A stretch of 18,268 nt of DNA, taken from UHGV virus genome UHGV-0201843; one strand, given 5' to 3'. The translations under genes were made by a program, and so were the position numbers. This stretch comes from a virus. This document shows positions 1-18,094 of this stretch, one piece after another. Below the pieces are notes generated by a model. It did not search any database. It had not been told where the DNA came from and worked only from the letters and a program-made list of their open reading frames with translations. Position 1 is the first letter of the stretch, and every line of letters starts with the position of its first letter.

Positions 1-191
1 CTATGGTTGTAAATTCTATGATCGTTTTTGGTGAAGAATAATTTTTCTTATACTTCACCCCACCCCCTCCCAAAAACGAGACTATAATTTGAGCGCATTG
101 CGAGACAAATTTCGATTGAAAGGTCGATGTACTTTCAAAAAATATTCAATCCATTCTTCACCAAAAACGATCATAGAATTTACAACCATAG
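1..191. repeat. Left terminal fold-back element: perfect 39-bp inverted repeat (1-39 vs 153-191) around a 113-bp spacer that carries the ITR core
   Basis: Direct reading: reverse complement of 1-39 (ctatggttgtaaattctatgatcgtttttggtgaagaat) equals 153-191 exactly. Pairing breaks at 40/152. The outer arm starts at window position 1. Confidence 0.85.
41..105. repeat. Inverted terminal repeat core, left copy (65 bp, perfect match to reverse complement of 18164-18228). Contains C-rich box ccccaccccctccc
   Basis: atttttcttatacttcaccccaccccctcccaaaaacgagactataatttgagcgcattgcgaga is present at 41-105. Its exact reverse complement lies near the right end. Similarity continues imperfectly to about 125. 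Confidence 0.9.
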
Positions 192-228
192 CGACGAAAA
201 TTTTTTTCAAAAAATATCATCAAAACTA

Positions 229-257
229 TTGCAAAAAATTCACACCTATTATATAAT
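229..257 (+). promoter_or_regulatory. Sigma-A-type early promoter (TTGCAA - 17 bp - TATAAT) upstream of first early gene
   Basis: TTGCAA at 229-234, 17-nt spacer, TATAAT at 252-257. About 30 nt upstream of the GGAGG RBS of the 289 CDS. Confidence 0.5.
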
Positions 258-288
258 GGAATCAAGTTAGAAATGGAGGTGAAAAAAA

Positions 289-561
289 GTGACAGATGAA
301 AAAGGTCAAGCCTATACGGAAATGTTGCAACTATTTAATTTACTTCAACAATGGAATGATTTCTACACTGCAGAAAATGCAAATAATTTATTAGTTGCTT
401 GTCAACAATTATTGATTAATTACAATGAACCAGTCATTAAATTTATCAACGATGAAAATGAAGATAAGTCCCTACTTCAATATTTAGCTGGTGATGATGG
501 TTTAGCACAATGGCAATTTTACAAAGGTTTTTATAACAACTACAATGTACACATTTTCTAA
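289..561 (+). CDS. Early protein, 90 aa, unknown function (GTG start)
   Basis: ORF with GGAGG RBS (275-279) 9 nt upstream of GTG at 289. First gene after the left-end promoter. No recognisable motifs. Confidence 0.6.
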   Translation: MTDEKGQAYTEMLQLFNLLQQWNDFYTAENANNLLVACQQLLINYNEPVIKFINDENEDKSLLQYLAGDDGLAQWQFYKGFYNNYNVHIF

Positions 562-614
562 TGAACTGAGTTAATACTATATTCTACTAAAATATAATAA
601 ACGGAGGTGTGTTG

Positions 615-830
615 ATGAATTATATTGATGTTGAAATTAAGGGTTTTACAATTTACTCAAAAAATGATAGACATGAAGAGTATGACTTTTTTATTCCTAA
701 ACAAGATTATAGAATTACTAAACGTGAAATATTACAACATATTCCAGAAGGTCATACGCTACTCGACAGTAAACGAACATCAAAAATGATTACAGTTTCA
801 TATGATGAATTATTAAAAATTGAAATATAA
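615..830 (+). CDS. Early protein, about 71 aa, unknown function
   Basis: GGAGGTG at 603-609 followed by ATG at 615. The track ORF 609-830 begins with GTG/TTG codons inside the RBS. ATG 615 is preferred. Confidence 0.55.
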   Translation: MNYIDVEIKGFTIYSKNDRHEEYDFFIPKQDYRITKREILQHIPEGHTLLDSKRTSKMITVSYDELLKIEI

Positions 831-844
831 AGGAGATTAAAACA

Positions 845-1354
845 ATGGCAAATGTAAAAGATTTATTAAACAAATATTCAAACGGTGGTGCAAAATTCGA
901 GTATGACAATGAAAAAGAAAGAGATTACATCAAACTAGGTGAATTGGATTCATCAAAAACATACCCTATTGAAGCACTATTTATTAATACCAAAGGTAAA
1001 TTTGGTGATCAAGGTGTTATTATTAGTGGTGATTATATTGTAAATCTACCTAATCACTTAACAGAAATGATTGAAGATATGAGAAAAGATGAAGAAATGG
1101 TTGATGCAATCAATCAACGTTTATTTGATTTTGAAATTTATGAATTTGAATCTAAAAAATATAATCGTAAATCACATAGTATTAATTTAGTACCTAGTGA
1201 AAAAACAAAACAAGAGGTTGAACCTGAACCTGAGCAACGTAATCCGTTATATCGTGAACCTGAATCTGAAAAAAAAGTAGAAAATGATCGACGTAACCCG
1301 TTCGCTCACGCTAATGGTGCAATTGATATTAGTGATGAAGATATACCATTTTAA
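845..1354 (+). CDS. SSB-like early protein (169 aa) with acidic/Pro-rich disordered tail ending in the SSB-type C-terminal tip DISDEDIPF
   Basis: AGGAG at 831-835, 9-nt spacer, ATG at 845. The C-terminal hexapeptide DEDIPF matches the bacterial SSB C-terminal protein-interaction motif (consensus DDDIPF). It is preceded by a low-complexity E/P-rich linker. The N-terminal approximately 115 aa is not recognisably a canonical OB fold by eye. Confidence 0.6.
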   Translation: MANVKDLLNKYSNGGAKFEYDNEKERDYIKLGELDSSKTYPIEALFINTKGKFGDQGVIISGDYIVNLPNHLTEMIEDMRKDEEMVDAINQRLFDFEIYEFESKKYNRKSHSINLVPSEKTKQEVEPEPEQRNPLYREPESEKKVENDRRNPFAHANGAIDISDEDIPF

Positions 1355-1367
1355 ATAAAAATTAAAT

Positions 1368-1392
1368 AAAGGGGGCAATGCCTCCTTTTTTA
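1368..1392 (+). terminator. Rho-independent terminator or attenuator after SSB-like gene
   Basis: aaagggggc / gcctccttt stem (9 bp with one G-U, 3-nt loop) followed by TTTTT at 1386-1390. Sits 14 nt after the stop of the 845-1354 CDS. Confidence 0.55.
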
Positions 1393-1408
1393 TTATGGAG
1401 TGATAAAT

Positions 1409-1654
1409 ATGTTTGGTACTATTGTGACAATTGGATTATGTTTATATGGTATAATTGCATTATTAGTGGTTTCAATTGTAAATTATAAAAGGAATGATTA
1501 TATGAACTTAATTCAAGCATATTATAAAATCGTTAATGCACTCAATGATTATGATTTAACAGATGAACAAAAAGAAAAACTTGAACAAGCACTATTTGAA
1601 ATCACTTGTGTATTAAACGATTTAGAAAGCGAGGGAAAATATTTTGATTATTAA
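1409..1654 (+). CDS. Small N-terminally membrane-anchored early protein (about 81 aa)
   Basis: GGAG at 1397-1400 then ATG at 1409 (MFGTIVTIGLCLYGIIALLVVSIV...). The track start 1400 is a GTG inside the RBS. One predicted TM helix then an acidic helical tail. Confidence 0.6.
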   Translation: MFGTIVTIGLCLYGIIALLVVSIVNYKRNDYMNLIQAYYKIVNALNDYDLTDEQKEKLEQALFEITCVLNDLESEGKYFDY

Positions 1655-2873
1655 ACATCAAATAAAACTACATTTAAACGAATTGATTGATTGGGTGTGG
1701 AGACATAATATCAAGAATGAAAAATATTACTCAAATAATGGTTCATATGTGATATTTGATCATGGTGCAGTCGTTGAAACGTATATTATTAATAAAAATG
1801 ATTTATTTAATGTGACTGATGAAACAGAAATCACACTTGATACACCAATTCAACATTTTTTAGAAAAGGATATGTATGGTAATTATCGTGAACATTTTGA
1901 TATATCAATTCATCAATTATTGTTTTTAAATACAACAACTGATTTATGGTTAATTAATAACGATGATTCACACATTTTAATATATAAAGACGGAAAACTC
2001 ATTGATGAATATATGTATCATGAATTTGAATATGAAGCCAATCAGAATAAGCATATTTACCAAAATAATAAAGCAAGTGGTACATACCCACATCAAAGCG
2101 AACAAAACGTAAAAAAACCGAACAATCACCCTACCCCAAAACCTGAAACACCTGAAGATCACACACCAAAAGTTAGAACAGTTAAGACATTAAACGGTAC
2201 AGTAATGAAAGATTATACACCCGTTTCATCAATACAATATGTTAAATCTGTTGGAATCATTGGTGACAGTGTGGGTAAAGGCGCGCATGCTTCATATAAC
2301 TTTGGTGATTATATTAATGAAAAAAGTGGTGCAAAAATAAAAAACTTATCAGTCAGTAGTGCCACAATGAGTGATGTGAAAGATAATAATATCATTAATC
2401 AAGCGAAACAATTAAAAGATAATGAACTCGTGATTATACAGGGTACTGATGATGATTGGTTGTTTAATTCTAATACAGGTGTTGAAGTAGGAAATAAACT
2501 TACAGATACGAAAACATATATCGGTGCATTTTATAAGGTTATCGAAACGGTTAAAGAAAATAACCCAAAAGCTAAAATCATAGTGATTACACCTACAAAA
2601 CAAGCAAAAGTTGACGATACTGGAAAAGTAATCAGACGTGATACAGATAAAAATAAAAAAGGTTACACGTTGAAAACCTATGTTGACGCACAAGTAAAAG
2701 CAACTAAAGATTTAGGATTAGCTTTATATAATGCGTATGATGATTCATTGATTAATCCATATGAAGCAAAATTCAGACAATCGTCAATGAAAGATGGATT
2801 ACACCCAACAAAATGGGGACATGAAGTAATGTACTACCGTATAGCAGAAACATATCATAAAAAATTTGATTGA
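1644..2873 (+). CDS. Fusion protein (409 aa): N-terminal domain of unknown function, Pro/Thr-rich linker, C-terminal SGNH/GDSL-family hydrolase (esterase) domain
   Basis: TTG start at 1644, preceded by GAGGG (1631-1635) with an 8-nt spacer, overlapping the upstream stop. SGNH blocks: GDS in VGIIGDSVGKG (block I); GTDDD (block III variant of GxND); DGLHPT (block V DxxH catalytic dyad). Linker PNNHPTPKPETPEDHTPK. Confidence 0.7.
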   Translation: MIIKHQIKLHLNELIDWVWRHNIKNEKYYSNNGSYVIFDHGAVVETYIINKNDLFNVTDETEITLDTPIQHFLEKDMYGNYREHFDISIHQLLFLNTTTDLWLINNDDSHILIYKDGKLIDEYMYHEFEYEANQNKHIYQNNKASGTYPHQSEQNVKKPNNHPTPKPETPEDHTPKVRTVKTLNGTVMKDYTPVSSIQYVKSVGIIGDSVGKGAHASYNFGDYINEKSGAKIKNLSVSSATMSDVKDNNIINQAKQLKDNELVIIQGTDDDWLFNSNTGVEVGNKLTDTKTYIGAFYKVIETVKENNPKAKIIVITPTKQAKVDDTGKVIRRDTDKNKKGYTLKTYVDAQVKATKDLGLALYNAYDDSLINPYEAKFRQSSMKDGLHPTKWGHEVMYYRIAETYHKKFD

Positions 2874-2883
2874 GGTGTAGTAA

Positions 2884-3387
2884 ATGAGAAGTGGTAATAA
2901 AGGTAATCGCATTGCACGTTCAAATGCGTTTAGAAATGCAACAAGCAAAAATCAATCAACGTATGAACGTGACGGTTTTGTTTTTTTATTTGATGATGAA
3001 GAATTACAAAAAGAATATATACATGAATATAACAAATTTAATAATTTATTTGTGGAAAAAGGAAAGGTTAAATTACCTAAACCGAAAAAGATAAGTTATA
3101 TTGATGCTAAAAGTTTAGTCAGTGGAAAGAATCAAGAAAAGTTAACAGAAATAGAAAATGTTTATAAACAATTGGACTATGACTGGGAAGAAAAAGGGAA
3201 TATGCACAAACGCCACCTATTCCAAGAAGCAGTCAAAGAAAATGACGGCTCACAAGAAATATCACACTTTATTAAATCAACTGAAAAGTTATTTGAGGAA
3301 CTCGCAGAAGCAACGAACGTACCAGATATTGTCAATAAAAAACAAGTGAAATATAACGTGGTTTATTACGTCAGACGGGTAGGTTAA
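2884..3387 (+). CDS. Basic 167-aa protein of unknown function (candidate DNA-binding or terminal-protein-like)
   Basis: GAGGTG at 2872-2877, ATG at 2884. Lys/Arg-rich N-terminus (MRSGNKGNRIARSNAFRNATSKN). Sits immediately upstream of the packaging ATPase and polymerase genes. Confidence 0.6.
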   Translation: MRSGNKGNRIARSNAFRNATSKNQSTYERDGFVFLFDDEELQKEYIHEYNKFNNLFVEKGKVKLPKPKKISYIDAKSLVSGKNQEKLTEIENVYKQLDYDWEEKGNMHKRHLFQEAVKENDGSQEISHFIKSTEKLFEELAEATNVPDIVNKKQVKYNVVYYVRRVG

Positions 3388-3445
3388 AATATGTTTGAAA
3401 ACATTCAAGATATTATTGATTATTATTCAAGTAAGGAGGGACAAC

Positions 3446-4705
3446 ATGAAAAAGTCACGACTGAATGAGGTCAAAGATTATCAAAATTTTGTAACTAAGT
3501 TTAGACGATCTATTCCAAAGCAATATAACCAAATTGAACTTGTTGATGATTTAATGAATTTAGATATAGATTTTCTTATTTCTATATCAAACCGTTCAGA
3601 TGGTAAAACATTCAACTATGTTGCTTTTTTTATGAAGTTAGCCATTGATTTAGACATCAAATTCACACTACTAGCAAGACACCATACGTTACGTGACGCA
3701 TACAGAGAATTGTTAGAACGTATTTGTATCGAACAAAAACATTTTAACGATAATGATCTATTCTTTAGAAACACACAAGACTATATAGCTGTTGGATATG
3801 GTGATAAAGAAATAGGGATTATTACACATCTCAATAACGCAACAGATTTAAAATATCATTCCAACTTCATGAAAAACTTTCCTATTATCATCTATGATGA
3901 ATTTTTAGCATTGGAAAGTGACTATTTGATAGATGAGTGGGAAAAGTTAAAAACGATTTATGAATCTATTGATAGAAATCATGGCAATATTGATTATATT
4001 AAAATTCCTAAAATCGTATTATTAGGTAATGCTGTGAACTTTTCAAGTCCACTACTTGCAAACTTAAATATTTATGAACAATTACAACATCATTCTAAGT
4101 TTGCGATGAATAGTAAACGTCAATACGGAAATATCATGTTAGAAATGAGGCGTAATGAATTTTCTAATGAGAATCGTAATACACGTGCATTTAATACGGA
4201 TCATGATTCAATGACAACGGGTGAATTTGATTTCAATACATTTAATTTAGCTGATGATCATTTACGTGCACATATATCGAGTAATGGAAACTTTTTCTAT
4301 ATTAAAACCCCTTACAATTATATTAAAGTAATGTATCACTTGAATGACTATCAAACGAATATTAAAGTCGTGCCTTATGCAGACAATTATCAGTTTTGTA
4401 CTGATGTTTCAGATGTTGAAAAAAACGCAATATATTTAAAAGATACATTTTATAAGGAAAATCATTCTAAACGTTATTATAACCCCTCAAATCTTCATTT
4501 TGACAATGCTTATAGTAAGTCTTTTATATTGAATCAAGATGATTTTATTTATCTAAACATGAACAAAATTATTAAGTATCATTTAAAAACTGAACGTAAT
4601 AAAAACGGTTACAAACCTTTTGAACAAAAAGAAAAAATGTATTATGATAATTACATTGAACGTACCAAAAAAAATCTAGTCAAATCATTTATAAGCAATG
4701 TGTAA
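3446..4705 (+). CDS. DNA encapsidation (packaging) ATPase, phi29 gp16-like
   Basis: Strong RBS GGAGGG (3435-3440) before ATG at 3446. The upstream ATG at 3395 lacks a good RBS. Walker A-like SNRSDGKT and Walker B-like hydrophobic run + DE (IIIYDEF). Position upstream of the polymerase as in 44AHJD-like phages. Confidence 0.7.
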   Translation: MKKSRLNEVKDYQNFVTKFRRSIPKQYNQIELVDDLMNLDIDFLISISNRSDGKTFNYVAFFMKLAIDLDIKFTLLARHHTLRDAYRELLERICIEQKHFNDNDLFFRNTQDYIAVGYGDKEIGIITHLNNATDLKYHSNFMKNFPIIIYDEFLALESDYLIDEWEKLKTIYESIDRNHGNIDYIKIPKIVLLGNAVNFSSPLLANLNIYEQLQHHSKFAMNSKRQYGNIMLEMRRNEFSNENRNTRAFNTDHDSMTTGEFDFNTFNLADDHLRAHISSNGNFFYIKTPYNYIKVMYHLNDYQTNIKVVPYADNYQFCTDVSDVEKNAIYLKDTFYKENHSKRYYNPSNLHFDNAYSKSFILNQDDFIYLNMNKIIKYHLKTERNKNGYKPFEQKEKMYYDNYIERTKKNLVKSFISNV

Positions 4706-4709
4706 AGTT

Positions 4710-4738
4710 TTTACATATTGCTTTTTATGTGTTATAAT
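4710..4738 (+). promoter_or_regulatory. Strong sigma-A promoter with extended -10 (TTTACA - 17 bp - TGTTATAAT) for the DNA polymerase gene
   Basis: TTTACA at 4710-4715, 17-nt spacer ending TGT, TATAAT at 4733-4738. The polymerase RBS GAGGTG and ATG at 4763 follow. Confidence 0.55.
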
Positions 4739-4762
4739 GAATTTTGATTAGAGGTGTAGAAC

Positions 4763-7057
4763 ATGGGATTATTAGAAGCAATGCAAAAAAATAAAGGTCA
4801 AAAACATATGTACCTTTATTGGGATATAGAAACATTAAATTATAATAAAATTGCTGGTAGAGAAAAACCTACAAAATATAAAAACGTGACATACAGTGTT
4901 GCAATTGGTTGGTATGATGGACAACATATTGATGTTGAAGTTTTTTCTAGTTTTAAAGCCTTTTATCAATCTTTTTTCGAATATGCACAAAGACGAGATA
5001 CAATAACAAAATCACAAACTACAATCAATATGATCGCACATAATTGTAATAAATATGATAATCACTTTCTACTACACGATACACAAAATTTCTTTGGTGA
5101 TGATTTAATTATTGAAAATTTATATATGAAAAGTGCTGATGATAATTCAAATACAGTTAATATCAATGAAGCAAAATTATTATCTAAAGAAACCAATGTG
5201 ATTTTAGAAAAACGTGTGAAATCAAGTATTAATTTAGATTTAATGATGTATTTAAAAGGTTTTAAGTTTAATATTATAGACAATTTTATGAAAACCAATA
5301 CATCAATCGCAACACTCGGTAAAAAGCTCAAAGACGGTGGGTTTATCAGTGAAGATGAGTTAAAAACTGATTTTGAATATGATGTGTTTGATGTTGAACA
5401 TGATATGACAGATAAACAAGCTTATGATTATGCTTATGAATGTTTTCATCAACTTACAGCATCACAAATGACCTATATTAGAAACGATGTCATCATATTA
5501 GGTATGTGTCATATCCATTATAGTGATATATTTCCCGGATTTGATTATAGTGCGATGACCTTTAGTGTAAATATTATGAAAAGCTATATTAATAATGAAA
5601 CAACACGATTGCAATTACTCAATAAAAAAGGTAAACAAAAAATATCATATACGGACTTTACATTTTTTGATATGAATTTTTATGACTTTATCAAAGGTTT
5701 CTATCGTGGTGGTTTAAATATGTATAATTCACGATACGTTGACAAAATCATTGATGAGGAATGTTTTTCAATAGACATAAATAGTAGTTATCCCTATGTG
5801 ATGTATCATGAAAAATTACCGATGTATATTTATGATTTTGATGAATATGAACAACCGACAACGATACACATTGATTTAACCAATAAAGATTATTTTTCAC
5901 TTTATAAAATGGATAAGGTCACATTTAATCGTACTATTTTAAGAAATATTGAAAGTGATTTAATTAAGCAATGTCTTGTTAAATACTACAATAATGACAA
6001 AAAGTTTGTTAATATAAATACAAACACTTTACGCATGATTGAAGATTTAACGGGTTTAACTTTTGACAAAATAAAAGTGTTTGCTTTTGTGTGTTATGAA
6101 TGTGAATACTTTGGCGCTCGTGATATTATTCATCATAATTATTTCATCAAAACGCAAGGTAAATTAGATAAAAAAATCATTATGGATTCACCCTATAATT
6201 ACACGATCACTGATGAAGTCAATACACATACTTATTCAAAAGAAGAAATCATGTTAAGTAAAGTTGTTTTAAATGGTCTGTATGGTATACCTGCTTTACG
6301 GTCACATTTTAATTTGTTTAGACGTGATGAGGACGGTTTTTTAGTTAACCATGAAAATGGATATAAAAACAGTGAACGTAATTTATTATTTTCTACTTTT
6401 GTGACATCACAAGCCCTTTATAATTTACTTGAACCATTAAAGTCATTAACACAATCTGAAATAGATGACTGCTTTATATATTGTGATACTGACAGTTTAT
6501 ATTTAAAATCAAAAATTAAACATAAAATAAATGATGAATTATTTGACCCTATTGCATTAGGTAAGTGGGATATAGAAAATCATGTCATTAAAAAAATGTA
6601 TGTACTCAATCATAAAAAGTACGCCTACCAAAAAGAAGATAACACAATTAAAATTGCCAGTGCAGGTATTCCATTAGACGCATTTAATAAGAATCAATCT
6701 TTTGAAAATTTTATTAAAAATGATTTTCACCATAAAGCAATTGTGTATAACAATAAATCCATTTATAACGAACAAAAAACAATATCTATTTACCCGTCAA
6801 AAACATATATTGAAAAGGGTACGCCTTATGATTATTATTTCACTAAAGAATTAGAGGATAGAAAAGAAGATGTTTTAAAACAAGCAAGACAAGAATATGA
6901 TGATGTGAATGATGATGATATATTATATATAGAGAGTGAAGTAGGCGCTTTTTCATTTAGTGACTTATTTCCATATCAATTTGAAATTAAAAATAAATGT
7001 GATCTTAACATATTATATATGGTTCATCAAGATATAAAAAATGACGCTACATCATAG
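4763..7057 (+). CDS. Protein-primed family-B DNA polymerase (phi29-type), 764 aa
   Basis: Exo I (LYWDIETL), Exo II (HNCNKYDNHFL), Exo III (YIRND), motif A (DINSSYP), motif B (KVVLNGLYG), motif C (YCDTDS), KxY (KKY). GAGGTG RBS. Confidence 0.95.
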   Translation: MGLLEAMQKNKGQKHMYLYWDIETLNYNKIAGREKPTKYKNVTYSVAIGWYDGQHIDVEVFSSFKAFYQSFFEYAQRRDTITKSQTTINMIAHNCNKYDNHFLLHDTQNFFGDDLIIENLYMKSADDNSNTVNINEAKLLSKETNVILEKRVKSSINLDLMMYLKGFKFNIIDNFMKTNTSIATLGKKLKDGGFISEDELKTDFEYDVFDVEHDMTDKQAYDYAYECFHQLTASQMTYIRNDVIILGMCHIHYSDIFPGFDYSAMTFSVNIMKSYINNETTRLQLLNKKGKQKISYTDFTFFDMNFYDFIKGFYRGGLNMYNSRYVDKIIDEECFSIDINSSYPYVMYHEKLPMYIYDFDEYEQPTTIHIDLTNKDYFSLYKMDKVTFNRTILRNIESDLIKQCLVKYYNNDKKFVNINTNTLRMIEDLTGLTFDKIKVFAFVCYECEYFGARDIIHHNYFIKTQGKLDKKIIMDSPYNYTITDEVNTHTYSKEEIMLSKVVLNGLYGIPALRSHFNLFRRDEDGFLVNHENGYKNSERNLLFSTFVTSQALYNLLEPLKSLTQSEIDDCFIYCDTDSLYLKSKIKHKINDELFDPIALGKWDIENHVIKKMYVLNHKKYAYQKEDNTIKIASAGIPLDAFNKNQSFENFIKNDFHHKAIVYNNKSIYNEQKTISIYPSKTYIEKGTPYDYYFTKELEDRKEDVLKQARQEYDDVNDDDILYIESEVGAFSFSDLFPYQFEIKNKCDLNILYMVHQDIKNDATS

Positions 7058-7070
7058 TAGCGTCTTTTTT
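7043..7070. terminator. Bidirectional rho-independent terminator between the convergent early (+) and late (-) operons, overlapping the polymerase stop codon
   Basis: Perfect 8-bp stem gacgctac / gtagcgtc with loop atcata (contains the polymerase TAG). Followed by TTTTTT (7065-7070) on the plus strand and preceded by an A-run (tataaaaaat, 7033-7042) that gives a U-run for the minus-strand transcript. Confidence 0.65.
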
Positions 7071-7163
7071 CGAGGTATAGTGACATGTTTCGCCTGTCTA
7101 CGGATTATGTTTTGTTGTTTATTTACTAGAATGTTCTAGCATACTTATATTATAGCATAAAAT

Positions 7164-8582
7164 TTATTTAATACCACTAAAGAACATAATATTATCTCCT
7201 GCATTTTCCGGTACACCATCAATCAGTGCATATTCAACAACACGACTAGGCGCCCAATAAGGTGGTACGTTATAGTTAGCTGTTAAAAATGAACCATCTT
7301 TAAATACTGCTACAACAACACCTGTATGTCCGACACCCGGTAACATCGCTTGTAGGTAATTAGGTTTACTACTGAATCCATAGCCAACTGTTGGTCGGTG
7401 TGTCACACGTGCGCCTTGATTACGATATACCACCCAAACACGTTGACCGTTTGTGACTTGATTATCCCATGCAGGTTGTCTTTTACCCCATATTTGGTGC
7501 ATATAAGCCCATGTCAATTCTGTACATTGTCCAGTATCACCTGTATTAACAAATGGACTACCTGCTAAATATTTTGGATCAAATTTAGGTACTTCAATGG
7601 CATCTTTATACTTTTGTGGTAAATTGGAATAAGTCCAGTTACCACCTATTTTTCTTCCACTTTTTCCATTAGGCGCAACGGATTTACCAGCTTTTCCACC
7701 ATGATCACCATCACTATCATCAGCACCCGTATCATTTCCACTACCTCCATCAATTCTTGATATTAAGTCTTTCATTTCATCAAGTAATTTTTGATTCATA
7801 TTTAAACGATACGTGTTATTATATGTTTTGGTGATAGTGAACATTTGATTTGAAAAAAATTTATCAGTACCAATAGAGTGCAAATCCCACTGCATACTGT
7901 CTTGTAATTTTTTGAGAAATTCTTCAAAGGCACGTGCCACAACATCAAGCCCACCACTAGGACTACTAGAACTACTTGAACCACTACTTGATCCTCCTTT
8001 ACCGTCTATTTTACCACCCCAACCCAAAATGGTATTTGCTGCGTCTAAAAATGGATTACCGTAAGTTTGAACTCTATTATAACTTGCTTGTAATCCCTCA
8101 GGATAATAAGCAGCCCAAGTTGCAGCAGCTGTTAATGGTATATAAGCACGTCCTACTTTTCCATTTTTCATATTATGTGAAAAGTCATAATTTCCTTTCG
8201 CTTTTACACTAGCAGGAACAAAGTCAACTGGATTTCCTTGGTCTATCCAACTTGGCGTACCTGCTTGACGTGATTGTGAAACAAGTTTACGTGCCACAAA
8301 TTGTGCATCGGTTAAATAATTTCCCTGTGGTGATGTATGATTTAACCAACCCCAACTACCATTATATCCCTCATTTTTTTCATATGCTGCAAAAAGAGCA
8401 GGTGAAACTCCAATGCTTTTAACTGCATTAAGGACTTGCTTAATTTTAGTTGAACTATTTCCACACCATGCAGAAAATCGACCTATACCCTTAACTTTTC
8501 CGACTAAATCATCAACACTTAATCCAAAATCATCATTTAAATTGGAATGTATAAACTTATCAATTTTTTCTTTATCATTCAT
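7164..8582 (-). CDS. Virion-associated (tail-tip) peptidoglycan hydrolase, about 472 aa: N-terminal putative glycosidase-like domain, Gly/Ser-rich linkers, C-terminal CHAP domain
   Basis: ATG at 8582 preceded by GAGGGTG. The track start 8606 is an upstream GTG. CHAP signature Cys in DTGQCTELTWAY and His in GVGHTGVVVAV. Linkers GGKIDGKGGSSSGSSSSSSPSGG and GGSGNDTGADDSDGDHGG. Last gene of the late operon, as for the phi29 gp13-type tail lysin. Confidence 0.7.
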   Translation of the reverse strand: MNDKEKIDKFIHSNLNDDFGLSVDDLVGKVKGIGRFSAWCGNSSTKIKQVLNAVKSIGVSPALFAAYEKNEGYNGSWGWLNHTSPQGNYLTDAQFVARKLVSQSRQAGTPSWIDQGNPVDFVPASVKAKGNYDFSHNMKNGKVGRAYIPLTAAATWAAYYPEGLQASYNRVQTYGNPFLDAANTILGWGGKIDGKGGSSSGSSSSSSPSGGLDVVARAFEEFLKKLQDSMQWDLHSIGTDKFFSNQMFTITKTYNNTYRLNMNQKLLDEMKDLISRIDGGSGNDTGADDSDGDHGGKAGKSVAPNGKSGRKIGGNWTYSNLPQKYKDAIEVPKFDPKYLAGSPFVNTGDTGQCTELTWAYMHQIWGKRQPAWDNQVTNGQRVWVVYRNQGARVTHRPTVGYGFSSKPNYLQAMLPGVGHTGVVVAVFKDGSFLTANYNVPPYWAPSRVVEYALIDGVPENAGDNIMFFSGIK

Positions 8583-8985
8583 CTTTTCCACCCTCTTTTT
8601 TTCCACGTATCACTTTTAATTTTTCACCTATTTCATCTGGAATAAGAACCCCCATTTCTGCACAGTTTTCAATAATAGATAATCCCTCATTAGCAATATA
8701 GAAAAAGATTGTTACCATTAATAATCCATTATTTAAGTTTAAAATTTGATCGATAATATTTGCTAAAATAATAATACAGAAAACAAGTATTTTACGACCG
8801 AATCCATACATTGATTTTCTACTCCATAAATTTTTATTTTTAAAACCTTTTGCTAAACCTGTAATAATATCAACACACATTAATATCATTAAAAAATAGA
8901 GTAATTTTAAATCACCTGCATAGATAAATGTATGAAAAATATCTGTTTGTGTGTATTGTACATTGATTTCACCTTTTTGTTCCAT
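8575..8985 (-). CDS. Holin (3-TM, phage_holin_4_1/LL-H-like), 136 aa
   Basis: Three hydrophobic segments (LLYFLMILMCVDIITGL, ILVFCIIILANIIDQIL, LLMVTIFFYIANEGLSII) and a charged C-terminal tail KKEGGKDE. Stop overlaps the start of the downstream hydrolase gene. Confidence 0.7.
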   Translation of the reverse strand: MEQKGEINVQYTQTDIFHTFIYAGDLKLLYFLMILMCVDIITGLAKGFKNKNLWSRKSMYGFGRKILVFCIIILANIIDQILNLNNGLLMVTIFFYIANEGLSIIENCAEMGVLIPDEIGEKLKVIRGKKEGGKDE

Positions 8986-8993
8986 TAAATATC

Positions 8994-10760
8994 CTACTTT
9001 CTAAATTTATTTTTAAATACATTTTGTGCCATTGGATTATTTGAACCATCATTGTGCCAAAATCTTACACCCGTTTCAAGTAATACTTTTAACTGTTCTA
9101 AAAGCATTGGATCAATACCATCAATGGTATATGTACCTCTCATTCTTAAATAATTGCATACCGTCCATGAATCAATTGGAAACGGTGTGCCTGCTTGATC
9201 GTTGGTTTCAAAACCTAACATAAAATAATAACGTTGGATATTATCCATATCAAATGGTGCGGGTACACCAATTTTCATAGTTAATCCATTAATACTATTT
9301 GCGATTTGGAAAGCATTTCCCATTTCTGAACTTGTTACTGTTGGTGGTTGTAATGCTAAATCCTTATATTCTGCTCGTAATTCTTTATAGTAATTATATT
9401 CATCATTAAATTTTGAAAATAATGCCGTTGGTGAAAGATTTGATCCAATGCTTACAGCATCATAAAATCTTGATTTTAAATCATTACCATTGACAACATT
9501 ATTGATTCTATTTGAAATTAAATTACTTTGTGCATTTTTTTGTTTATTAGCTTGTTGTGATTGAGCAAGTAATCCATTATCAATCAAAATAGGTACTTCA
9601 GCAAAGCTATCAAATGTAATAGCTGTATTTAAGAATGAACCTGTATCTATTAATATTGAATTATCACTTGCTTTGATTGGTTTTTCATTAGGTGCACTGT
9701 TATAATCTACTGGATAAATACGTACCTCGTTATGATATCCAATAATAGATTTTGTTTTTAATTTAACACCTGTTCTTTCTGTTATTTTTCCTGCATCAAG
9801 TAGTAAACTGTCACCATTCCATGAATATATTTCAATCGTTAAATATTCATTTCTAACTAAATGTTTTAATTCATCTTGATTACTATTTAACATATATTGC
9901 AATCGTTCAAATGGTACACGTAATTCTTTTAATTCCCACTCATTAGATAATTTATCATTTTTAAGTGTCATTAATCCTTTTATATCTTCTTGTGTTTTGA
10001 CTGCTTCTAAATCATCTTTATTAATAAATGTTGCAGGTATTAATATGATTTTTTGAAAGTTTTGTGTAATCCATGGATATTTACTCATTTTATCCATAAA
10101 GTTATTAAAATCCTCACGATTCATGACATATAAATTAACTGGACTTGTAATGTAATCGTAAGTAATTCCTTTTGAAGATTCTAAGTTTGGTTCTTTTTTA
10201 GTACCAAATTTTTTAGATAAATCAGCACTTGATTGGAATAAAACAAGATTACCACCAAACTGTTCAAGATAATTATTCAGATAGTATTTGTTACTGGCTT
10301 TAATAACATCATCATTATTTCTCAGTGATGGTAACAAATAATTATAGACCTCACGTGGTAAATGTTGACGTTCAACAAAAGCATTTTGAACAGTAGATAA
10401 TACATTGCCCTGTGTGTAAGTCATGACTGTATCAATGACTAAATACATACGCGTCACATGATCATTGACATATTCAATTTGATTGACAAACGCGTAATAA
10501 CGTCTATTTTCAAAATCAGATTTAAATGTACAATAATTGATACCCTGTGCGTCTTGCCATGACATTTGTTCAAGATTCACCATATTTCTATCACGTATAA
10601 AATTAAATGGTATATTTTTGTAATCAATCGCATAAAAGTGATTTTCATTTAAAAAATAATGATCACGTGCAGCATTTGATGGAAAGTGAATTGTATTCTG
10701 ATAATCTGTCATTGGTGTATTATAGAAAAATTTAAAATGTGTTAATTTTCTATCTGCCAT
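8994..10760 (-). CDS. Tail knob (distal tail tube) protein, phi29 gp9-like, 588 aa
   Basis: AGGAGG RBS 7 nt upstream of ATG at 10760. Size and position match the gp9 tail knob of phi29-like phages. Assignment is by synteny and size, not by motif. Confidence 0.55.
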   Translation of the reverse strand: MADRKLTHFKFFYNTPMTDYQNTIHFPSNAARDHYFLNENHFYAIDYKNIPFNFIRDRNMVNLEQMSWQDAQGINYCTFKSDFENRRYYAFVNQIEYVNDHVTRMYLVIDTVMTYTQGNVLSTVQNAFVERQHLPREVYNYLLPSLRNNDDVIKASNKYYLNNYLEQFGGNLVLFQSSADLSKKFGTKKEPNLESSKGITYDYITSPVNLYVMNREDFNNFMDKMSKYPWITQNFQKIILIPATFINKDDLEAVKTQEDIKGLMTLKNDKLSNEWELKELRVPFERLQYMLNSNQDELKHLVRNEYLTIEIYSWNGDSLLLDAGKITERTGVKLKTKSIIGYHNEVRIYPVDYNSAPNEKPIKASDNSILIDTGSFLNTAITFDSFAEVPILIDNGLLAQSQQANKQKNAQSNLISNRINNVVNGNDLKSRFYDAVSIGSNLSPTALFSKFNDEYNYYKELRAEYKDLALQPPTVTSSEMGNAFQIANSINGLTMKIGVPAPFDMDNIQRYYFMLGFETNDQAGTPFPIDSWTVCNYLRMRGTYTIDGIDPMLLEQLKVLLETGVRFWHNDGSNNPMAQNVFKNKFRK

Positions 10761-10778
10761 TTCTTATCCTCCTTATAT

Positions 10779-10810
10779 GTAAAAAATAGACACGCTTTCA
10801 CGTGTCTATT
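10779..10810 (-). terminator. Rho-independent terminator on the minus strand between the coiled-coil fibre gene and the tail knob gene
   Basis: Perfect 10-bp stem aatagacacg / cgtgtctatt (10785-10794 / 10801-10810), 6-nt loop. On the minus strand it is followed by TTTTTT (plus 10779-10784 aaaaaa). Confidence 0.55.
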
Positions 10811-10820
10811 ATATCATAAT

Positions 10821-11618
10821 TTAGTCTATAAATACTGTATTAATTGGACACCATTCATCGCCCGTTGGTGAATCATTTGTTGTACCCTCTAAGACAATAT
10901 CTCCCTCACGTTTAATTGTGATTCTCATAAAGTTGATTGACCCACTTTTTTTAGATGTATTTTGTACATAATAATGTGGATTTGACAACTCACCACTGAT
11001 AGGAATTTTACCAACTGTGTTATTGTCACCTTTATATCCATTGACTGCACCACGTAAAGCAATAGTTCTAATTCCTTTTACAGTTGTTATTCTATATTGT
11101 GGTGGATCAGTATGTGGTGTTAATCCACTACCAGTGATGTTAATATTTTTCCAACCTGTATCTGTAATATTAATTTCATTGATTTTATTCGTATTCGATT
11201 GAATTTTTTCATTTGTTTCGTTTGTTGTTTCGTCAATCTTTTCTGATAACGTTTTTTGTTCTTGTTTCAATTCATCGATATTAATTGAATCAATTTTTTG
11301 TTCATTATCATAGATACGTTTTTCATTATCTGATAGTTTTTCTTGAACTTCTTGTACTTCATCTGGTAAAAATTCAACCTTTTTTATTTTTTCTTCATTA
11401 TTATAAATACGTTGTTCGTTATCTGATAATTTTTCTTGAACTTCTTGAACTTCATCTTGTAATGGTTCGATACTTTCTAAATGAAGAAAACCATTTTTTG
11501 TGTAAATGTAAACATCACCATCAACGGTTGAACATATATCATTTTCGTCAAGAAGATTTGTATTAAAATTTTGTAGGTTATAAATATCTTTGACACTTCT
11601 TACAAATTTACTTGCCAT
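10821..11618 (-). CDS. Coiled-coil fibre-like structural protein (about 265 aa) with internal 31-aa tandem repeat and C-terminal beta-rich knob domain
   Basis: GGAGG RBS then ATG at 11618 (MASKFVRS...), overlapping the amidase stop by 11 nt. The track ORF extends to 11684 inside the amidase gene. Heptad-like repeats LxDEVQEVQEKLSDNExRIYxNExKI occur twice. The C-terminus is Gly/Thr/Asn-rich and beta-like. Confidence 0.6.
   Translation of the reverse strand: MASKFVRSVKDIYNLQNFNTNLLDENDICSTVDGDVYIYTKNGFLHLESIEPLQDEVQEVQEKLSDNEQRIYNNEEKIKKVEFLPDEVQEVQEKLSDNEKRIYDNEQKIDSINIDELKQEQKTLSEKIDETTNETNEKIQSNTNKINEINITDTGWKNINITGSGLTPHTDPPQYRITTVKGIRTIALRGAVNGYKGDNNTVGKIPISGELSNPHYYVQNTSKKSGSINFMRITIKREGDIVLEGTTNDSPTGDEWCPINTVFID
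11292..11462. repeat. Imperfect 93-nt tandem duplication inside the coiled-coil fibre gene
   Basis: Two DNA copies (about 11292-11369 and 11385-11462) encode LPDEVQEVQEKLSDNEKRIYDNEQKI and LQDEVQEVQEKLSDNEQRIYNNEEKI. Same reading frame, period 31 aa. Confidence 0.8.
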
Positions 11619-12507
11619 GCTTTTCAACCTCCAATTTTCCCCAAAGATTTTTTTCATTTTTAATTTTTTCTTGTTTATCTTCAATATGACCTATTGGCAT
11701 ATAGAAATATTTATCGCTTGAACCTTTTTTAGCGTATTTAAACTTAATCCACCATAATTTTGCTTGTTTATCTTTTATGATTTGATAAAACGGTACATAT
11801 TCATTAGGTTGTATATATGAATCTTTATCAACCTCTTTTGCAGTCATACCATAATCATATCTAGGAACAATCGGTAATGTATTTGTTTTATGAGCAGTAA
11901 ATGTACCACGCCAATTATATTTAACGTATTTATTTTCACTCACTTGTGGTTTATCAGGTGTTTTTCCACCGTTTGCATAATGTTTAATACGAGAGATAAA
12001 GTAATCAATCAATTTTAATTGGTTTGCTCTTGTATTTGGTGCATTAACCCCTATGTGTATATCCCAACTACGATGAGGACAAGACGTTGAAAAGTATTCA
12101 CGATGTAGGTGAACCGTATTACGATTAATTGGTAAATTGTATGATTTCATCACATCGGCAACAACTTTAAAAGTAGCTTCTTCATTTTTCATAAATGTTT
12201 CATCAGATATATGATTTGGATAACTTTCACAGACTTCAAAACCAATTAAATGTTGGTTTGCGTATTGATTTCCACAATGCCACTCAACAAAATTTGTAGG
12301 GTGATACCATAAAACCTCATTACGATTGATATAAACTGAAGCCCAACCCTGTGTATACGTACCATTTTGTTCACGTGTATATAACCAGTTTAAATATTGG
12401 CTAGGTGTCATTGAACCGTAATCATTATGAATGACTACGCCATCAATACTAGGTTTTTGACCTGTCAACTTTTGACCTTTAATGTGATTTGAATAAATGT
12501 TTTTCAT
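11608..12507 (-). CDS. Endolysin: N-acetylmuramoyl-L-alanine amidase (Amidase_2/PGRP type) with C-terminal SH3-like cell-wall-binding domain, 299 aa
   Basis: AGGAGG RBS 7 nt before ATG at 12507. Zinc-amidase motifs: His in GVVIHNDYG, and H...E...CP in HLHREYFSTSCPHRS. C-terminal approximately 90 aa is Trp/Tyr/Lys-rich and SH3b-like. Confidence 0.75.
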   Translation of the reverse strand: MKNIYSNHIKGQKLTGQKPSIDGVVIHNDYGSMTPSQYLNWLYTREQNGTYTQGWASVYINRNEVLWYHPTNFVEWHCGNQYANQHLIGFEVCESYPNHISDETFMKNEEATFKVVADVMKSYNLPINRNTVHLHREYFSTSCPHRSWDIHIGVNAPNTRANQLKLIDYFISRIKHYANGGKTPDKPQVSENKYVKYNWRGTFTAHKTNTLPIVPRYDYGMTAKEVDKDSYIQPNEYVPFYQIIKDKQAKLWWIKFKYAKKGSSDKYFYMPIGHIEDKQEKIKNEKNLWGKLEVEKHGK

Positions 12508-12543
12508 TATAATACCTCCTTAAAATTTAAGGATAGGCAAAGC

Positions 12544-14373: not shown

Positions 14374-14384
14374 TGTTTATCCTC

Positions 14385-15236
14385 CTACCATATGTGTAAA
14401 AAACATTCTTTATCATATGTTTTAAATATTGTATCACGCATGGAATATAATTTTTGTAAGTTATCAATTAAGTATTGTTTTGTTAAACCTGTACGATTCA
14501 TTTCATTTTGTGACTCAGTATTACGTTTCGTATCACTTTCACCGTTTCTTAATGAATCAAACGTATTATCTTTTGTACCTGTTTTTTCTGATACTGTTTC
14601 ACTGGTATTTTTATCTCGTGAAATCGTGTTTGTGTCTGCATAATCAAGCACTGTATTATCTACATCAATATTCACTTGTGATTGTGGTAAAGTAGATTCA
14701 GCAGTACGGTTATCATCAAAACTTTTTGTAATTGTATCTTCATAATCTTTATATTCTTCATGACCTTTGTCTTGTTGTCTATCTTTCGTTTGACCTTGTT
14801 CAATGGCATTTTCTAATGCTTTGCCAATATCCGTTGACTGTGTGTCAGTCATTTGTTCAATATATTTATACATATCTGAACCATAGACACGATATATATA
14901 TTCTTCATGTGTCATGGTGATGTATAATACTTGACTTGCAAAGGATTCTACTGTTTGACGACCTATTTCACGATATAAAAAACGCAATGTGAAACTTTCT
15001 TTAAAATATCGGTCAATCCGTTCATCATTAAACATGAAACCTTTAAAAAACATATTATCAACAATTTGTTTGACATCATCATCAAAATACAACATCTTTT
15101 GCATAAACGCATGTTTTGAATCGTTAAAGTGGATTCTATCATTATTAACAAATTCATTTAACCCTAAACGTTGTAATTCACTTTCAATGATTTCATATAA
15201 CGTTGTTGTGTGTTTACTCAACTTTTCCACCACCAA
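14385..15236 (-). CDS. Lower collar protein (putative), about 280 aa. Start codon uncertain: TTG/GTG cluster at 15236-15219
   Basis: Size and synteny (downstream of portal). No ATG and no clear SD. Start overlaps the portal C-terminus (GGTGGTGGAAAAGTTG), which suggests translational coupling. Polar low-complexity C-terminal region. Confidence 0.5.
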   Translation of the reverse strand: MVVEKLSKHTTTLYEIIESELQRLGLNEFVNNDRIHFNDSKHAFMQKMLYFDDDVKQIVDNMFFKGFMFNDERIDRYFKESFTLRFLYREIGRQTVESFASQVLYITMTHEEYIYRVYGSDMYKYIEQMTDTQSTDIGKALENAIEQGQTKDRQQDKGHEEYKDYEDTITKSFDDNRTAESTLPQSQVNIDVDNTVLDYADTNTISRDKNTSETVSEKTGTKDNTFDSLRNGESDTKRNTESQNEMNRTGLTKQYLIDNLQKLYSMRDTIFKTYDKECFLHIW

Positions 15237-16221: not shown

Positions 16222-16239
16222 GGTTTAAAAGCCTCCTTA

Positions 16240-17460: not shown

Positions 17461-17473
17461 TGTTTAACTCCTC

Positions 17474-17665
17474 CTATACTTCTTGTGTACCTTCATCACT
17501 ATATGATTGTTTTGTTAATGAATGAACTTGTCGTCCGTATTCATCTTCTGATTTTGATGTAGCAATACTCATATTTTCATTTAATTCTCTTGATTTATTT
17601 AAACGTGAATCTTCATAATTGGCATGTGTCATGCCACGCATTTCATTTCCATCAAATACTGACAT
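17474..17665 (-). CDS. Small polar protein (about 63 aa) between scaffold-like and capsid genes, unknown function
   Basis: AGGAGTG RBS then ATG at 17665 (MSVFDGNEM...). The track start 17674 is a GTG within the RBS. Confidence 0.5.
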   Translation of the reverse strand: MSVFDGNEMRGMTHANYEDSRLNKSRELNENMSIATSKSEDEYGRQVHSLTKQSYSDEGTQEV

Positions 17666-17677
17666 ATTTTTCACTCC

Positions 17678-18001: not shown

Positions 18002-18058
18002 TTTATTTACACCTCTTTATTTTATAAAAATAATTAAGCAAATAATTTGCTTGTTTCA

Positions 18059-18087
18059 ATTATAACATAAAAATAAATAAATGTATA
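18059..18087 (-). promoter_or_regulatory. Late-operon promoter on minus strand with extended -10 (TATACA - 17 bp - TGTTATAAT)
   Basis: On the minus strand: TATAAT = complement of 18059-18064, TGT = complement of 18065-18067, -35-like TATACA = complement of 18082-18087. About 55 nt upstream of the first late gene. Confidence 0.45.
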
Positions 18088-18094
18088 AATTTGT

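Follow-up and report, generated by a model that had tools for sequence, protein, structure and literature searches.

The whole stretch of DNA analyzed here, 18,268 nucleotides from the virus genome UHGV-0201843 and referred to below as the window, carries the same sequence in opposite orientation near its two ends, with a C-rich box embedded in it. This raises the question of what the repeated element is, whether the window ends where the genome ends, and what the box may do. A repeat search of the window found inverted arms at 41-124 and 18145-18228 (84 nt, 95% complementary). When the two copies were compared directly, 80 of 84 positions were identical, with mismatches at 106, 113, 116 and 118; since the mismatches start at 106, positions 41-105 form a perfect 65-mer. 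The original prediction had placed an exact inversion of 41-105 at 18164-18228 and imperfect homology to about 125, and both are borne out, the repeat reaching 124 on the left and 18145 on the right. Beyond the repeat, identity between left and right falls to 28/76 for 125-200 and to 11/40 for 1-40.

The window shares 91% nucleotide identity with phage Andhra over 40-18268. The segments 41-124 (plus strand) and 18145-18228 (minus strand) are the two inverted terminal repeat (ITR) copies of an Andhravirus. This phi29-like Staphylococcus phage has a linear genome, replicated by protein priming that starts at either end; its identity to Andhra, together with an ITR at both ends, agrees with the earlier assignment to a protein-primed Staphylococcus picovirus. 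The element is thus an ordinary ITR, a known kind of element in a known phage genus. Terminal repeats of Andhra have been published before; for Andhravirus phages, ITRs appear as GenBank annotations and in a report by Cater et al. 2017. The genomes of Andhra, Pontiff, Pike, JBug18, PSU3, St 134 and BESEP3 are 88-91% identical to the window in nucleotide sequence and their ITRs have the same layout, consisting of an A+T-rich tip, GGTACTTCACCCCACCCCCACCCAGAAACGA, AATTTG, GCGA, AAATTT and AAAGGT blocks, and inward promoters just within. The window differs from these relatives in having a T in the third C-run (CTCCC rather than CACCC), AAAAACGA in place of AGAAACGA, the outer variant AATAATTTTTCTTA, and a shorter length shared end to end (84 nt, or 98 nt with the missing tip described below, versus 113-128 nt). 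Its sub-terminal modules are mosaic, the right one resembling Andhra's left and the left one resembling S-CoN_Ph32, and its ends are replaced by fold-backs.

As candidate 5' terminal protein the window encodes a basic protein of 167 aa (2884-3387, plus strand, pI 9.0), which shares 88% identity with Andhra gp7 and 90% with the protein named "5' terminal protein" in St 134. Hawkins et al. 2022 made the gp7 assignment on two grounds, the density seen in the tail and an AlphaFold model whose topology matches that of phi29 gp3. The protein-primed family B DNA polymerase (4763-7057, plus strand) is 96% identical to Andhra gp9 and aligns with the phi29 and Cp-1 polymerases, the exonuclease and polymerase catalytic motifs being invariant. 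[quoted passage not shown] 2022. Consensus matches predict an inward sigma-70-like promoter for the left gene block inside the ITR boundary (TTGCAA-17-TATAAT, 229-257, plus strand) and an inward extended -10 site for the right gene block (TG-TATAAT, 18059-18087, minus strand).

Searches for further copies of the repeat were sparse in result. The ITR variant CACCCCACCCCCTCCCAAAAACGA had no match in JGI metagenomes and TTTTTCTTATACTTCACCCC had none in IMG/VR. The latter pattern gave three internal matches in GTDB genomes, on large contigs of unrelated MAGs, which we take for chance. In metagenomes it matched contig L125, by chance, and contig L126. The spurious 55-aa ORF at 89-256, sought as a route to contigs carrying only the ITR, was not on record.

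The extreme bases of the window differ between its ends (CTATGG and ATCGTT), as had been remarked. At each end a stretch repeats nearby sequence in reverse complement without a mismatch: 1-39 repeats 153-191 on the plus strand (39 nt, 100%, 113-nt loop), and 18219-18268 repeats 18095-18144, or 55 nt at 96% if extended. Both arms reach exactly to the window ends; their sources lie on the inner side of the repeat core, at a distance of 113 nt on the left and 74 nt on the right, and their junctions carry the microhomologies AAGAAT (34-39) and ATTTTTCTTA (10 nt, 18219-18228). The fold-back-only sequence is 1-33 on the left (the reverse complement of 159-191), which is found at no relative's end, and 18229-18268 on the right. 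Neither arm was mentioned in the original prediction. An apparent extension of 40 nt past the shared core at each end proved to be a coincidence of where end identity stops.

Genuine genome sequence probably starts at 34 on the left. Here AAGAATA (34-40, plus strand), present at the left end only, corresponds to positions 8-14 of the canonical terminus and matches the Pike-type terminus at 6/7 positions, compared with 1/7 at the right end. The related metagenome contig L126 begins AAATATTAAGAATAATTTTTCTTATACTTC / AAATATTAAGAATAATTTTTCTTATACTTCACCCC; window 34-55 is identical to its positions 8-29, and the right ITR copy aligns to its terminus from position 15. Two IMG/VR contigs and either end of Andhra have AAATATTAAGG directly next to an Illumina adapter, and the Pontiff, Pike, PSU3, CoN28 and CoN33 records begin at AAATATTAAGG. 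Taken together, the fold-back arms and the start of L126 indicate that the window lacks the 7 (left) and 14 (right) true terminal bases, AAA included. As read from these sequences, the absent tips are AAATATT on the left and AAATATTAAGAATA on the right, i.e. AAATATT(AAGAATA); with them in place of the fold-backs the genome would measure 18,216 bp. We infer that the outer 33 nt (left) and 40 nt (right) are an artefact and not genome end. The suggestion that the true termini lie inside the window was therefore half right: the window ends are not genome ends, but what lies outermost in the window (33-40 nt) is fold-back copy, and the last 7 and 14 nt of the real genome are absent.

The sliding-back mechanism of initiation is published to use a terminal 3'-TTT, and the identical reiterated ends that characterize it are absent from the window as given, which had been read as inconsistent with sliding-back. 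This reading fails once the tips are restored, because the AAA/3'-TTT reiteration is present in the relatives and in the same-lineage contig L126 (AAATATT...). We attribute the lack of a sliding-back terminus in the window to its missing tips and not to the phage itself.

The likely explanation of the fold-backs is that they are snap-back or template-switch chimeras arising from library preparation or from a strand-displacing polymerase; an assembler would retain such a fold-back at a physical end as nothing competes with it, and the short true tip would be clipped. They resemble the snap-back chimeras known from library preparation by strand displacement or PCR in being reverse-complement copies from about 75-115 nt away, with 6-10-nt microhomology and exactly at contig ends, and in that sister records carry adapters and homopolymer junk. 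A single de Bruijn k-mer size does not account for their lengths, the perfect arms being 39 and 50 nt.

Within the repeat, the C-rich box CACCCCACCCCCTCCC is located at 56-71 (plus strand) and 18198-18213 (minus strand). These are its only two matches in the window with up to 3 mismatches, against 0.01 expected from 200 shuffles. The box has 81% G+C in a genome of 29.9% G+C, much as described from the sequence originally, and is the genome's most C-dense 12-mer, equalled by 0/592 internal 60-nt segments. It sits in the most conserved ITR block, TACTTCACCCCACCCCCTCCCAAAAACGA (51-79 on the plus strand, with an identical 29-mer at 18190-18218 on the minus strand), which is the longest near-invariant block of the repeat in an alignment of 25 distinct Andhravirus ends. 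The box lies 30 nt from the true end, its Cs always on the 5' (terminal-protein-linked) strand, and the terminal 29 bp before it are 83% A+T. Relatives lacking the box had been named as evidence that would speak against the original reading; instead, the box is present at all Andhravirus ends that extend to its position, as well as in more distant protein-primed phages.

A C-tract on the 5' strand near the end was also detected in P68, 44AHJD, C1, Cp-1 and GA-1 and at the left ends of phi29 and B103, and was noted for Pabna and Av-1. In each genome tested, the end C-tract is the most C-dense 12-mer. A survey of IMG/VR picovirus contigs, many of which do not stop at a true genome end, gave 8 or more C in 12 nt at 23/113 ends (20%), compared with 1.64% for internal segments (binomial P = 1e-18). 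Related lineages account for some of these 23 ends, which fall by eye into about 13 distinct families. The G equivalent occurred at 1/113 ends (1%; C versus G, Fisher P = 9e-7). The uncultured relatives in this comparison share only about 24% polymerase identity. These findings establish a similarly placed, strand-specific C-tract as a general feature of protein-primed podophage ends, with a box-to-end distance that ranges from about 9 to about 45 nt between genera. The phi29 right end has a weak C-tract (7/12), a level reached by 45/628 internal segments; since the phi29 right origin is active with this weak tract, a strong box is not universally needed for initiation.

The details differ among these systems. 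Phages phi29, B103 and GA-1 (Salasmaviridae) are likewise protein-primed, with AAA-starting ends, a homologous polymerase and a 5'-strand C-tract near the end (AAAGTAAGCCCCCACCC at the phi29 and B103 left ends and AAATAGAGTCCACCCTTCCTCCCCTCCC in GA-1), but their ITR is only 6-7 bp, and their strong box, positioned at 9-17 nt, is confined to the left end in phi29 and B103. Cp-1, with a 236-bp ITR, has the 5'-strand C-box AAAGCATGTACTCCCCCACCCC and has GTACT followed by C-runs in common with Andhra; Streptococcus phage C1, with a 143-bp terminal repeat, has ..GATTTCTCCCTCCCCCCTCC. In the Rosenblumvirus pair P68 and 44AHJD, P68 reads (AA)ATATAATAGGGAAAAAG...TTTACACCACCCCACCG; its box lies some 31-43 nt into the record, and its terminus shows homology to AAATATTAAGGAAA. 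The repeats of Cp-1, C1 and P68/44AHJD are otherwise unrelated to that of the window except for tip and box, and box lengths and distances differ. The adenovirus origin, with a core and auxiliary NFI/Oct-1 boxes, is alike in principle, being protein-primed with a conserved ITR box tens of bp in, but has no homology with the phage ITR. The adenovirus boxes bind host transcription factors.

Taken as a whole, we consider the observations likely to be explained by an Andhravirus ITR with a conserved, strand-specific C-box that acts in duplex form as an origin element, and by fold-back window ends. As a duplex, the box would be a cis element of the terminal replication origin, and conservation, position and strand bias make a role in origin function plausible. 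The terminal-protein/polymerase complex or an accessory DNA-binding protein may recognise the box or be positioned by it; recognition by the polymerase/terminal-protein complex, as originally proposed, is plausible on the same sequence features. Alternatively, the box could form a G:C-rich boundary confining end-melting to the 83% A+T terminal 29 bp. We know of no protein that binds a phage C-box, nor of a p6 homologue in Andhra-like phages. In phi29, according to published work, origin activation relies on p6 bound to bendable DNA, bendability and not a specific sequence being what p6 recognises, and the required sequence lies within the last 12 bp.

A broader and more tentative proposal, which we regard as possible but doubtful, is that all protein-primed podophages (Rountreeviridae, Salasmaviridae and uncultured relatives) share an as yet undescribed cis element, a 5'-strand C-tract at 9-45 nt from the end. 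Either the packaging motor or the terminal-protein/polymerase complex would read it in a strand-specific way, and the fold-back ends would partly be real snap-back synthesis at A+T-rich tips. In the literature searched, nothing relevant turned up on the motif, on C-rich protein-primed ITRs or on a G-quadruplex at the phi29 origin, though the box may have been described before.

The box could also lack any sequence-specific reader and serve as a mere G:C clamp against end fraying, or as a panhandle stabiliser for the displaced strand. The 83% A+T terminal 29 bp stand directly before an 81% G+C stretch, phi29 origins are known from published work to be stronger with unpaired ends, and the position of the tract differs among genera, all of which would suit a clamp. 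Yet a pure clamp needs neither Cs on one particular strand, where C exceeded G by 23/113 to 1/113, nor the near-invariant flanks TACTT...AGAAACGA, and we judge this explanation unlikely.

We think it quite improbable that the C-tract is instead a signal for packaging initiation or end polarity, read by the packaging motor with the terminal protein and unconnected with replication. The idea draws on phi29 and B103, in which the strong box AAAGTAAGCCCCCACCC is restricted to the left end, and in phi29 the left end is the one packaged first; strand specificity would suit a motor tracking one strand. A further point in its favour is that the window showed no pRNA-like RNA that could serve packaging recognition; neither pRNA nor any other known RNA near the ends had an Rfam match. 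Long-ITR phages (Andhra, P68, Cp-1 and C1) have the box at both ends, however, so polarity is not given by the box alone, and the right ends of phi29, B103 and GA-1 do have a weaker conserved C-tract, CATTTCCCC(C)AT.

Returning to the fold-backs, we hold it very unlikely that they are genuine, which would mean that template switching by the phage polymerase at the ends adds hairpin or snap-back extensions in vivo to the phage DNA or to a sizeable subpopulation of it. Such ends do recur across technologies: besides the window they occur in an ENA MEGAHIT contig, in the Pabna record (1-109 versus 217-325; Illumina/SPAdes) and in S-CoN_Ph32 (at least 179 nt; Nanopore/Flye). As they occur in Illumina as well as Nanopore assemblies, biology may have some part in them. 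The junctions sit at microhomologies, and strand-displacing protein-primed polymerases make palindromic products in vitro. But the window's two ends are mutually unrelated and lack the AAA with which a protein-primed end must start. The ENA contig k141_11390, 99.9% identical to the window, has the same left join with 9 extra nt, so that the junction shifts by 9 nt between the two. At least nine related records have AAATATTAAG and no fold-back at the physical end, as judged from a ligated adapter or the record start. Deposited picovirus ends also bear adapters and poly-T junk, which shows that assemblers extend physical ends with rare reads. Covalently closed hairpin telomeres of the N15, poxvirus or Borrelia type, whose ends are near-perfect palindromes with a tight turnaround, alike on both sides, and which come with a telomere resolvase gene, were rejected. 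Here the loops are non-palindromic and span 113 nt on the left and 74 nt on the right (64 nt with the imperfect 55-nt arm), the arms are unrelated between the two ends, and the ends of relatives are open and bear ligated adapter. In order and size the genes agree with the 20 annotated in Andhra, which cover replication, packaging, structural, lysis and small hypothetical functions, none being annotated as a resolvase.

The original prediction had also raised a two-quartet G-quadruplex. We give scarcely any credence to the reading that the G-rich template strand GGGAGGGGGTGGGGTG folds into one at the 3' end and so drives or regulates initiation. In the window and the Andhra/Pontiff type the strand has four runs of two or more Gs with loops of at most 7 nt, and ViennaRNA with its quadruplex term predicts a two-tetrad structure, but this energy term is generous. 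Two-tetrad DNA quadruplexes are of marginal stability. The motif is present in the window, Andhra/Pontiff, C1 and GA-1, yet a single-base change removes it in BESEP3 (both ends; its variant of the G-rich strand is GGGTGGGGTGGGG), PSU3 (right end) and CoN29, and it is absent in P68, Pabna, Cp-1, phi29 and B103, all of which keep the C-tract. Four G3 tracts were absent from the window and 11 other termini tested by regular expression, and the box is 30 nt away from the 3' end, not at it. The quadruplex idea thus does not hold among relatives that retain the C-tract, and the box does not appear to act in this form. A conserved single-stranded hairpin with the box in its loop was likewise set aside: the ITR folded no better than shuffles in the window (z = -0.84 and -0.38 for the two strands) or in Pontiff (z = +1.46 and +2.06).

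Almost no weight attaches to the inverted repeat being an assembly artefact, such as one end duplicated onto the other: the ENA contig of the same phage does lack the left copy and joins the arms via a single repeat, but the two copies differ at 4 positions and run on into different unique sequence, all relatives have ITRs of about 113-128 nt, and the Logan contig L023, an exact copy of window 76-288 from an independent run, bears the left-specific version of the repeat and stops 30 nt into its perfect part, where a k=31 assembly should break if Logan uses that k-mer size.

In sum, the window, like several deposited picovirus genomes, stops elsewhere than at the genome end. Origin fragments, minireplicons or end primers based on it would carry the wrong 40 bases and miss the AAA start, and the corrected genome end can be given as AAATATTAAGAATAATTTTTCTTATACTTCACCCC... 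The presence of a C-tract near the ends of very distant protein-primed phages may help to explain which features, apart from the parental terminal protein and the last 12 bp, mark a genome end.

Megablast of the whole window returned Staphylococcus phages only, with Andhra as the top match (91.0% identity across 40-18268), followed by Pontiff, JBug18, Pike, St 134, PSU3, BESEP3 and the S-CoN phages, all of them in the genus Andhravirus, family Rountreeviridae. Gene order in the window is that of Andhra, and the DNA polymerase (4763-7057), the 167-aa basic protein (2884-3387) and a 169-aa protein (845-1354) are 96%, 88% and 91% identical to Andhra gp9, gp7 and gp3, respectively. On the strength of tail density and of an AlphaFold model that shares the topology of phi29 gp3, gp7 has been proposed as the likeliest 5' terminal protein, and the SSB role was given to gp3 (Hawkins et al. 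2022); the St 134 record labels the homolog of the 167-aa protein "5' terminal protein". Judging by these matches, the gene order and the polymerase, gp7 and gp3 homologs, the window is a predicted phi29-like, protein-primed picovirus, which bears out what had been assumed for it. No Rfam family reached gathering score anywhere in the window and hence there is no recognizable phi29-type pRNA. Two tandem 93-nt copies (83% identical) lie at 11293-11478 within a minus-strand gene (10821-11684) homologous to Andhra gp13, which is annotated as a minor tail protein and was named head fiber by Hawkins et al.

The inverted terminal repeat (ITR) of the original prediction is real. Its arms (41-124 and 18145-18228) are 84 nt long and 95% complementary; base-by-base comparison found 80 of 84 bases identical, with mismatches only at 106, 113, 116 and 118, so that 41-105 is a perfect 65-mer. 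Beyond the arms, end-to-end identity falls to 28/76 inward and 11/40 outward. The left copy and its left-specific continuation are confirmed by an independent Logan contig, SRR1952315_431, which matches window 76-288 exactly. This contig ends 30 nt into the perfect repeat, the expected break point for a k=31 assembly, which we take to be the Logan setting. [quoted passage not shown]

The sub-terminal modules just inside the ITR (125-191 and 18078-18144) are mosaic when compared with Andhra and S-CoN_Ph32: the right module (…AATACATTCAAAATTAAACGATGGATTATGAATAAG) is near-identical to the left end of Andhra, and the left module (GGTCGATGTACTTTCAAAAAATATT…) matches S-CoN_Ph32. This pattern suggests that end modules may be exchanged both between phages and between ends. 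In another Logan contig, SRR6216742_56 (1-268), from a relative with an identical 90-aa first gene, the ITR-proximal module is tandemly duplicated (…AACGAGAC…GCGAGACAAATTTCGAGT.AAAGG twice) upstream of the promoter.

Both window ends are fold-backs, a point missed by the original prediction. Positions 1-39 form, across a 113-nt loop, the perfect reverse complement of 153-191, and 18219-18268 that of 18095-18144 (55 nt at 96% when extended into the core). Both arms reach the window ends exactly, and 1-33 and 18229-18268 consist of fold-back only; among 15 related records and contigs, the window alone has such exact terminal fold-backs. The right junction falls on a microhomology, ATTTTTCTTA, common to the outer edge of the repeat and the reverse complement of internal sequence, and the left junction on AAGAAT. 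A MEGAHIT contig in ENA (ERZ27276124 k141_11390; 18,227 nt, 99.87% identical to the window) represents essentially the same phage. In it, the reverse complement of left internal sequence is joined to the repeat at the same ATTTTT motif, followed by 9 additional bases (GGATTGAAT) and then the right-end version of the repeat. Its left arm is linked to its right arm via a single ITR copy and the fold-back junction, and it is therefore a falsely circularized genome lacking one ITR copy.

Fold-backs of a similar kind were seen in two deposited records. Pabna (MH972260), assembled with SPAdes from Illumina reads at ~2,100-fold coverage, has at 1-109 an inverted copy of 217-325 (95%) with a P68-like terminus in the loop. 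In S-CoN_Ph32 (OR354855), whose series was assembled with Flye from Nanopore reads only, the arms of a perfect fold-back lie at 101-279 and 342-520 within 1-520; they measure at least 179 nt, as bounded by the range searched, and enclose a 62-nt loop that contains a damaged copy of the C-rich motif described below. The P68-like terminus of Pabna, AAATATAATAGGG, is internal at ~128, the arm mismatches appear by eye as G-to-A in the outer arm, and 237-325 was annotated as the repeat by the authors.

The fold-backs are most likely chimeric molecules kept by the assembler at physical ends. A 3' terminus set back by a few bases within the A+T-rich tip could pair with nearby complementary microhomology, on the same or the sister strand, and its extension would give exactly the arrangement seen at the window ends. 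Since nothing competes with rare chimeric reads at a physical end, the assembler would follow them, and the true 7-14-nt tip would be a short dead end prone to clipping. That assemblers lengthen picovirus ends with junk is shown by the adapters and poly-T of sister records, and authors in the field already caution that picovirus contig ends are unreliable. No single k-mer size accounts for the arm lengths (39 and 50 nt). It seems very improbable that genuine snap-back products made by the phage polymerase contribute.

Records of relatives point to the real ends of the genome. The Andhra record has an Illumina adapter (…GTGACTGGAGTTCAGACGTGTGCTCTTCCGATCT) directly against AAATATTAAGGAAATTTTTTTTGGTACTTCACCCC at both ends, and two IMG/VR contigs have the same junction; a ligated adapter marks a physical DNA end. 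AAATATTAAG is the exact starting point of CoN28, CoN33 and both ends of Pontiff, Pike and PSU3, and in JBug18 it follows poly-T junk. Upstream of TACTTC the two window ends have only ATTTTTCTTA in common, and at positions 8-14 of the canonical terminus the left end matches 6/7 and the right 1/7. From the left-end match we predicted the terminus AAATATTAAGAATAATTTTTCTTATAC. Scanning metagenome contigs for a lineage-specific stretch found OIFN01000345.1 (18,121 nt, ~90% identical to the window), which starts with exactly this sequence and whose positions 8-29 equal window 34-55. Seven true bases are thus absent from the left end of the window and 14 from the right, and the expected genome length is ~18,216 bp. 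Once restored, the end begins AAA, which gives the 3'-TTT reiteration that serves sliding-back in phi29, GA-1, Nf and Cp-1. As the original prediction correctly held, the window ends do not fit sliding-back and the true termini are elsewhere, but these do not lie inside the window: the true tips are missing altogether.

In Andhra (KY442063 / NC_047813), 1-55 and 18493-18546 comprise Illumina adapter adjoining the true end AAATATTAAGG; some 42 nt of the annotated and published 155-nt ITR (14-168) are therefore adapter, which leaves a real repeat of ~113 nt, like those of Pike and JBug18. Positions 1-95 and the last ~91 nt of JBug18 (MH972263) are poly-T junk outside the true termini. In three IMG/VR contigs of uncultured picoviruses (L083, L090, L092), TruSeq/Nextera adapter remnants adjoin C-tract-bearing ends, which could mark verified physical termini.

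The C-rich motif of the ITR, or C-box, CACCCCACCCCCTCCC, lies at 56-71 (+) and 18198-18213 (-), starting 30 nt from the true end. These are its only occurrences in the window even at 3 mismatches (0.01 expected). It has 81% G+C vs 29.9% for the genome, and its C density is equaled by none of 592 internal 60-nt segments from the two strands. When 25 distinct Andhravirus ends are aligned, the longest near-invariant block is TACTTCACCCCACCCCCnCCCAnAAACGA; its flanks are variable, and it is followed by the short conserved blocks AATTTG, GCGA, AAATTT, AAAGGT and ATGGATTAT.

The box is also present beyond Andhravirus. Terminal C-tracts were found in P68, 44AHJD and Pabna (…TTTACACC[A/T]CCCCACCG), Streptococcus phage C1 (…GATTTCTCCCTCCCCCCTCC), Cp-1 (AAAGCATGTACTCCCCCACCCC), the left ends of phi29 and B103 (AAAGTAAGCCCCCACCC), GA-1 (AAATAGAGTCCACCCTTCCTCCCCTCCC) and Av-1 (TGTGTCTGTGCCCCCC). 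The box is, in every complete genome examined, the 12-mer with the highest C density; the exception is the phi29 right end, where there is only a weak tract. CATTTCCCC(C)AT occurs ~26-40 nt from the right ends of phi29 (26-39), B103 and GA-1, in regions otherwise dissimilar by eye, and is a second, weaker conserved C-tract.

We surveyed 80 IMG/VR loci, recovered via the polymerase (23-96% identity), for 12-nt stretches with 8 or more C (or G) within the first 80 nt of 113 true contig ends. On the 5' strand, 23/113 ends (20%) were positive for C, a frequency that underestimates the true one because many contig ends are surely not genome ends, compared with 1/113 (1%) for G and, for C, 1.64% of 24,760 internal 80-nt segments on both strands (binomial P = 1e-18; C vs G, Fisher P = 9e-7). 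The C-positive ends fall by eye into roughly 13 sequence families. The concern that relatives might lack the box is clearly dispelled by the Andhravirus alignment, the distant phages and this survey. In the searchable literature, which does not extend to older end-sequencing papers and the 2001 phi29-family review, we found no paper describing the C-tract as common to the ends of protein-primed phages in general, and we claim no priority.

The conserved feature is a strand-specific oligo-C·oligo-G duplex that borders the A+T-rich tip on its inner side, and on this comparative evidence we favor a role for the C-box, in duplex form, as a cis element of the origin at each terminus. The terminal-protein/polymerase complex or an accessory protein may recognize it or be positioned by it, and it may possibly also bound the region of end-melting; phi29 origins are stronger with unpaired ends. 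The requirements defined for phi29 origins comprise the terminal 12 bp, the parental terminal protein and p6 bound to bendable DNA, and the right origin of phi29 functions despite its weak C-tract. A packaging role is a live rival, given that phi29 and B103 carry the strong box at the left end only; in phi29 the left end is packaged first. Another rival, a pure G:C clamp, is opposed by the C strand bias.

Roles based on structure, including the G-quadruplex originally suggested, fare badly: ITR strands fold no better than shuffles (z -0.84 and -0.38 in the window, +1.46 and +2.06 in Pontiff), no terminus tested has four G3 tracts, and the two-tetrad motif seen in the window does not persist in BESEP3, PSU3 (right end), CoN29, P68, Pabna, Cp-1, phi29 and B103, which keep the C-tract. 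The finding originally submitted is itself ordinary; the comparative C-tract result, with a duplex origin element as its favored reading, and the corrected termini are useful by-products.
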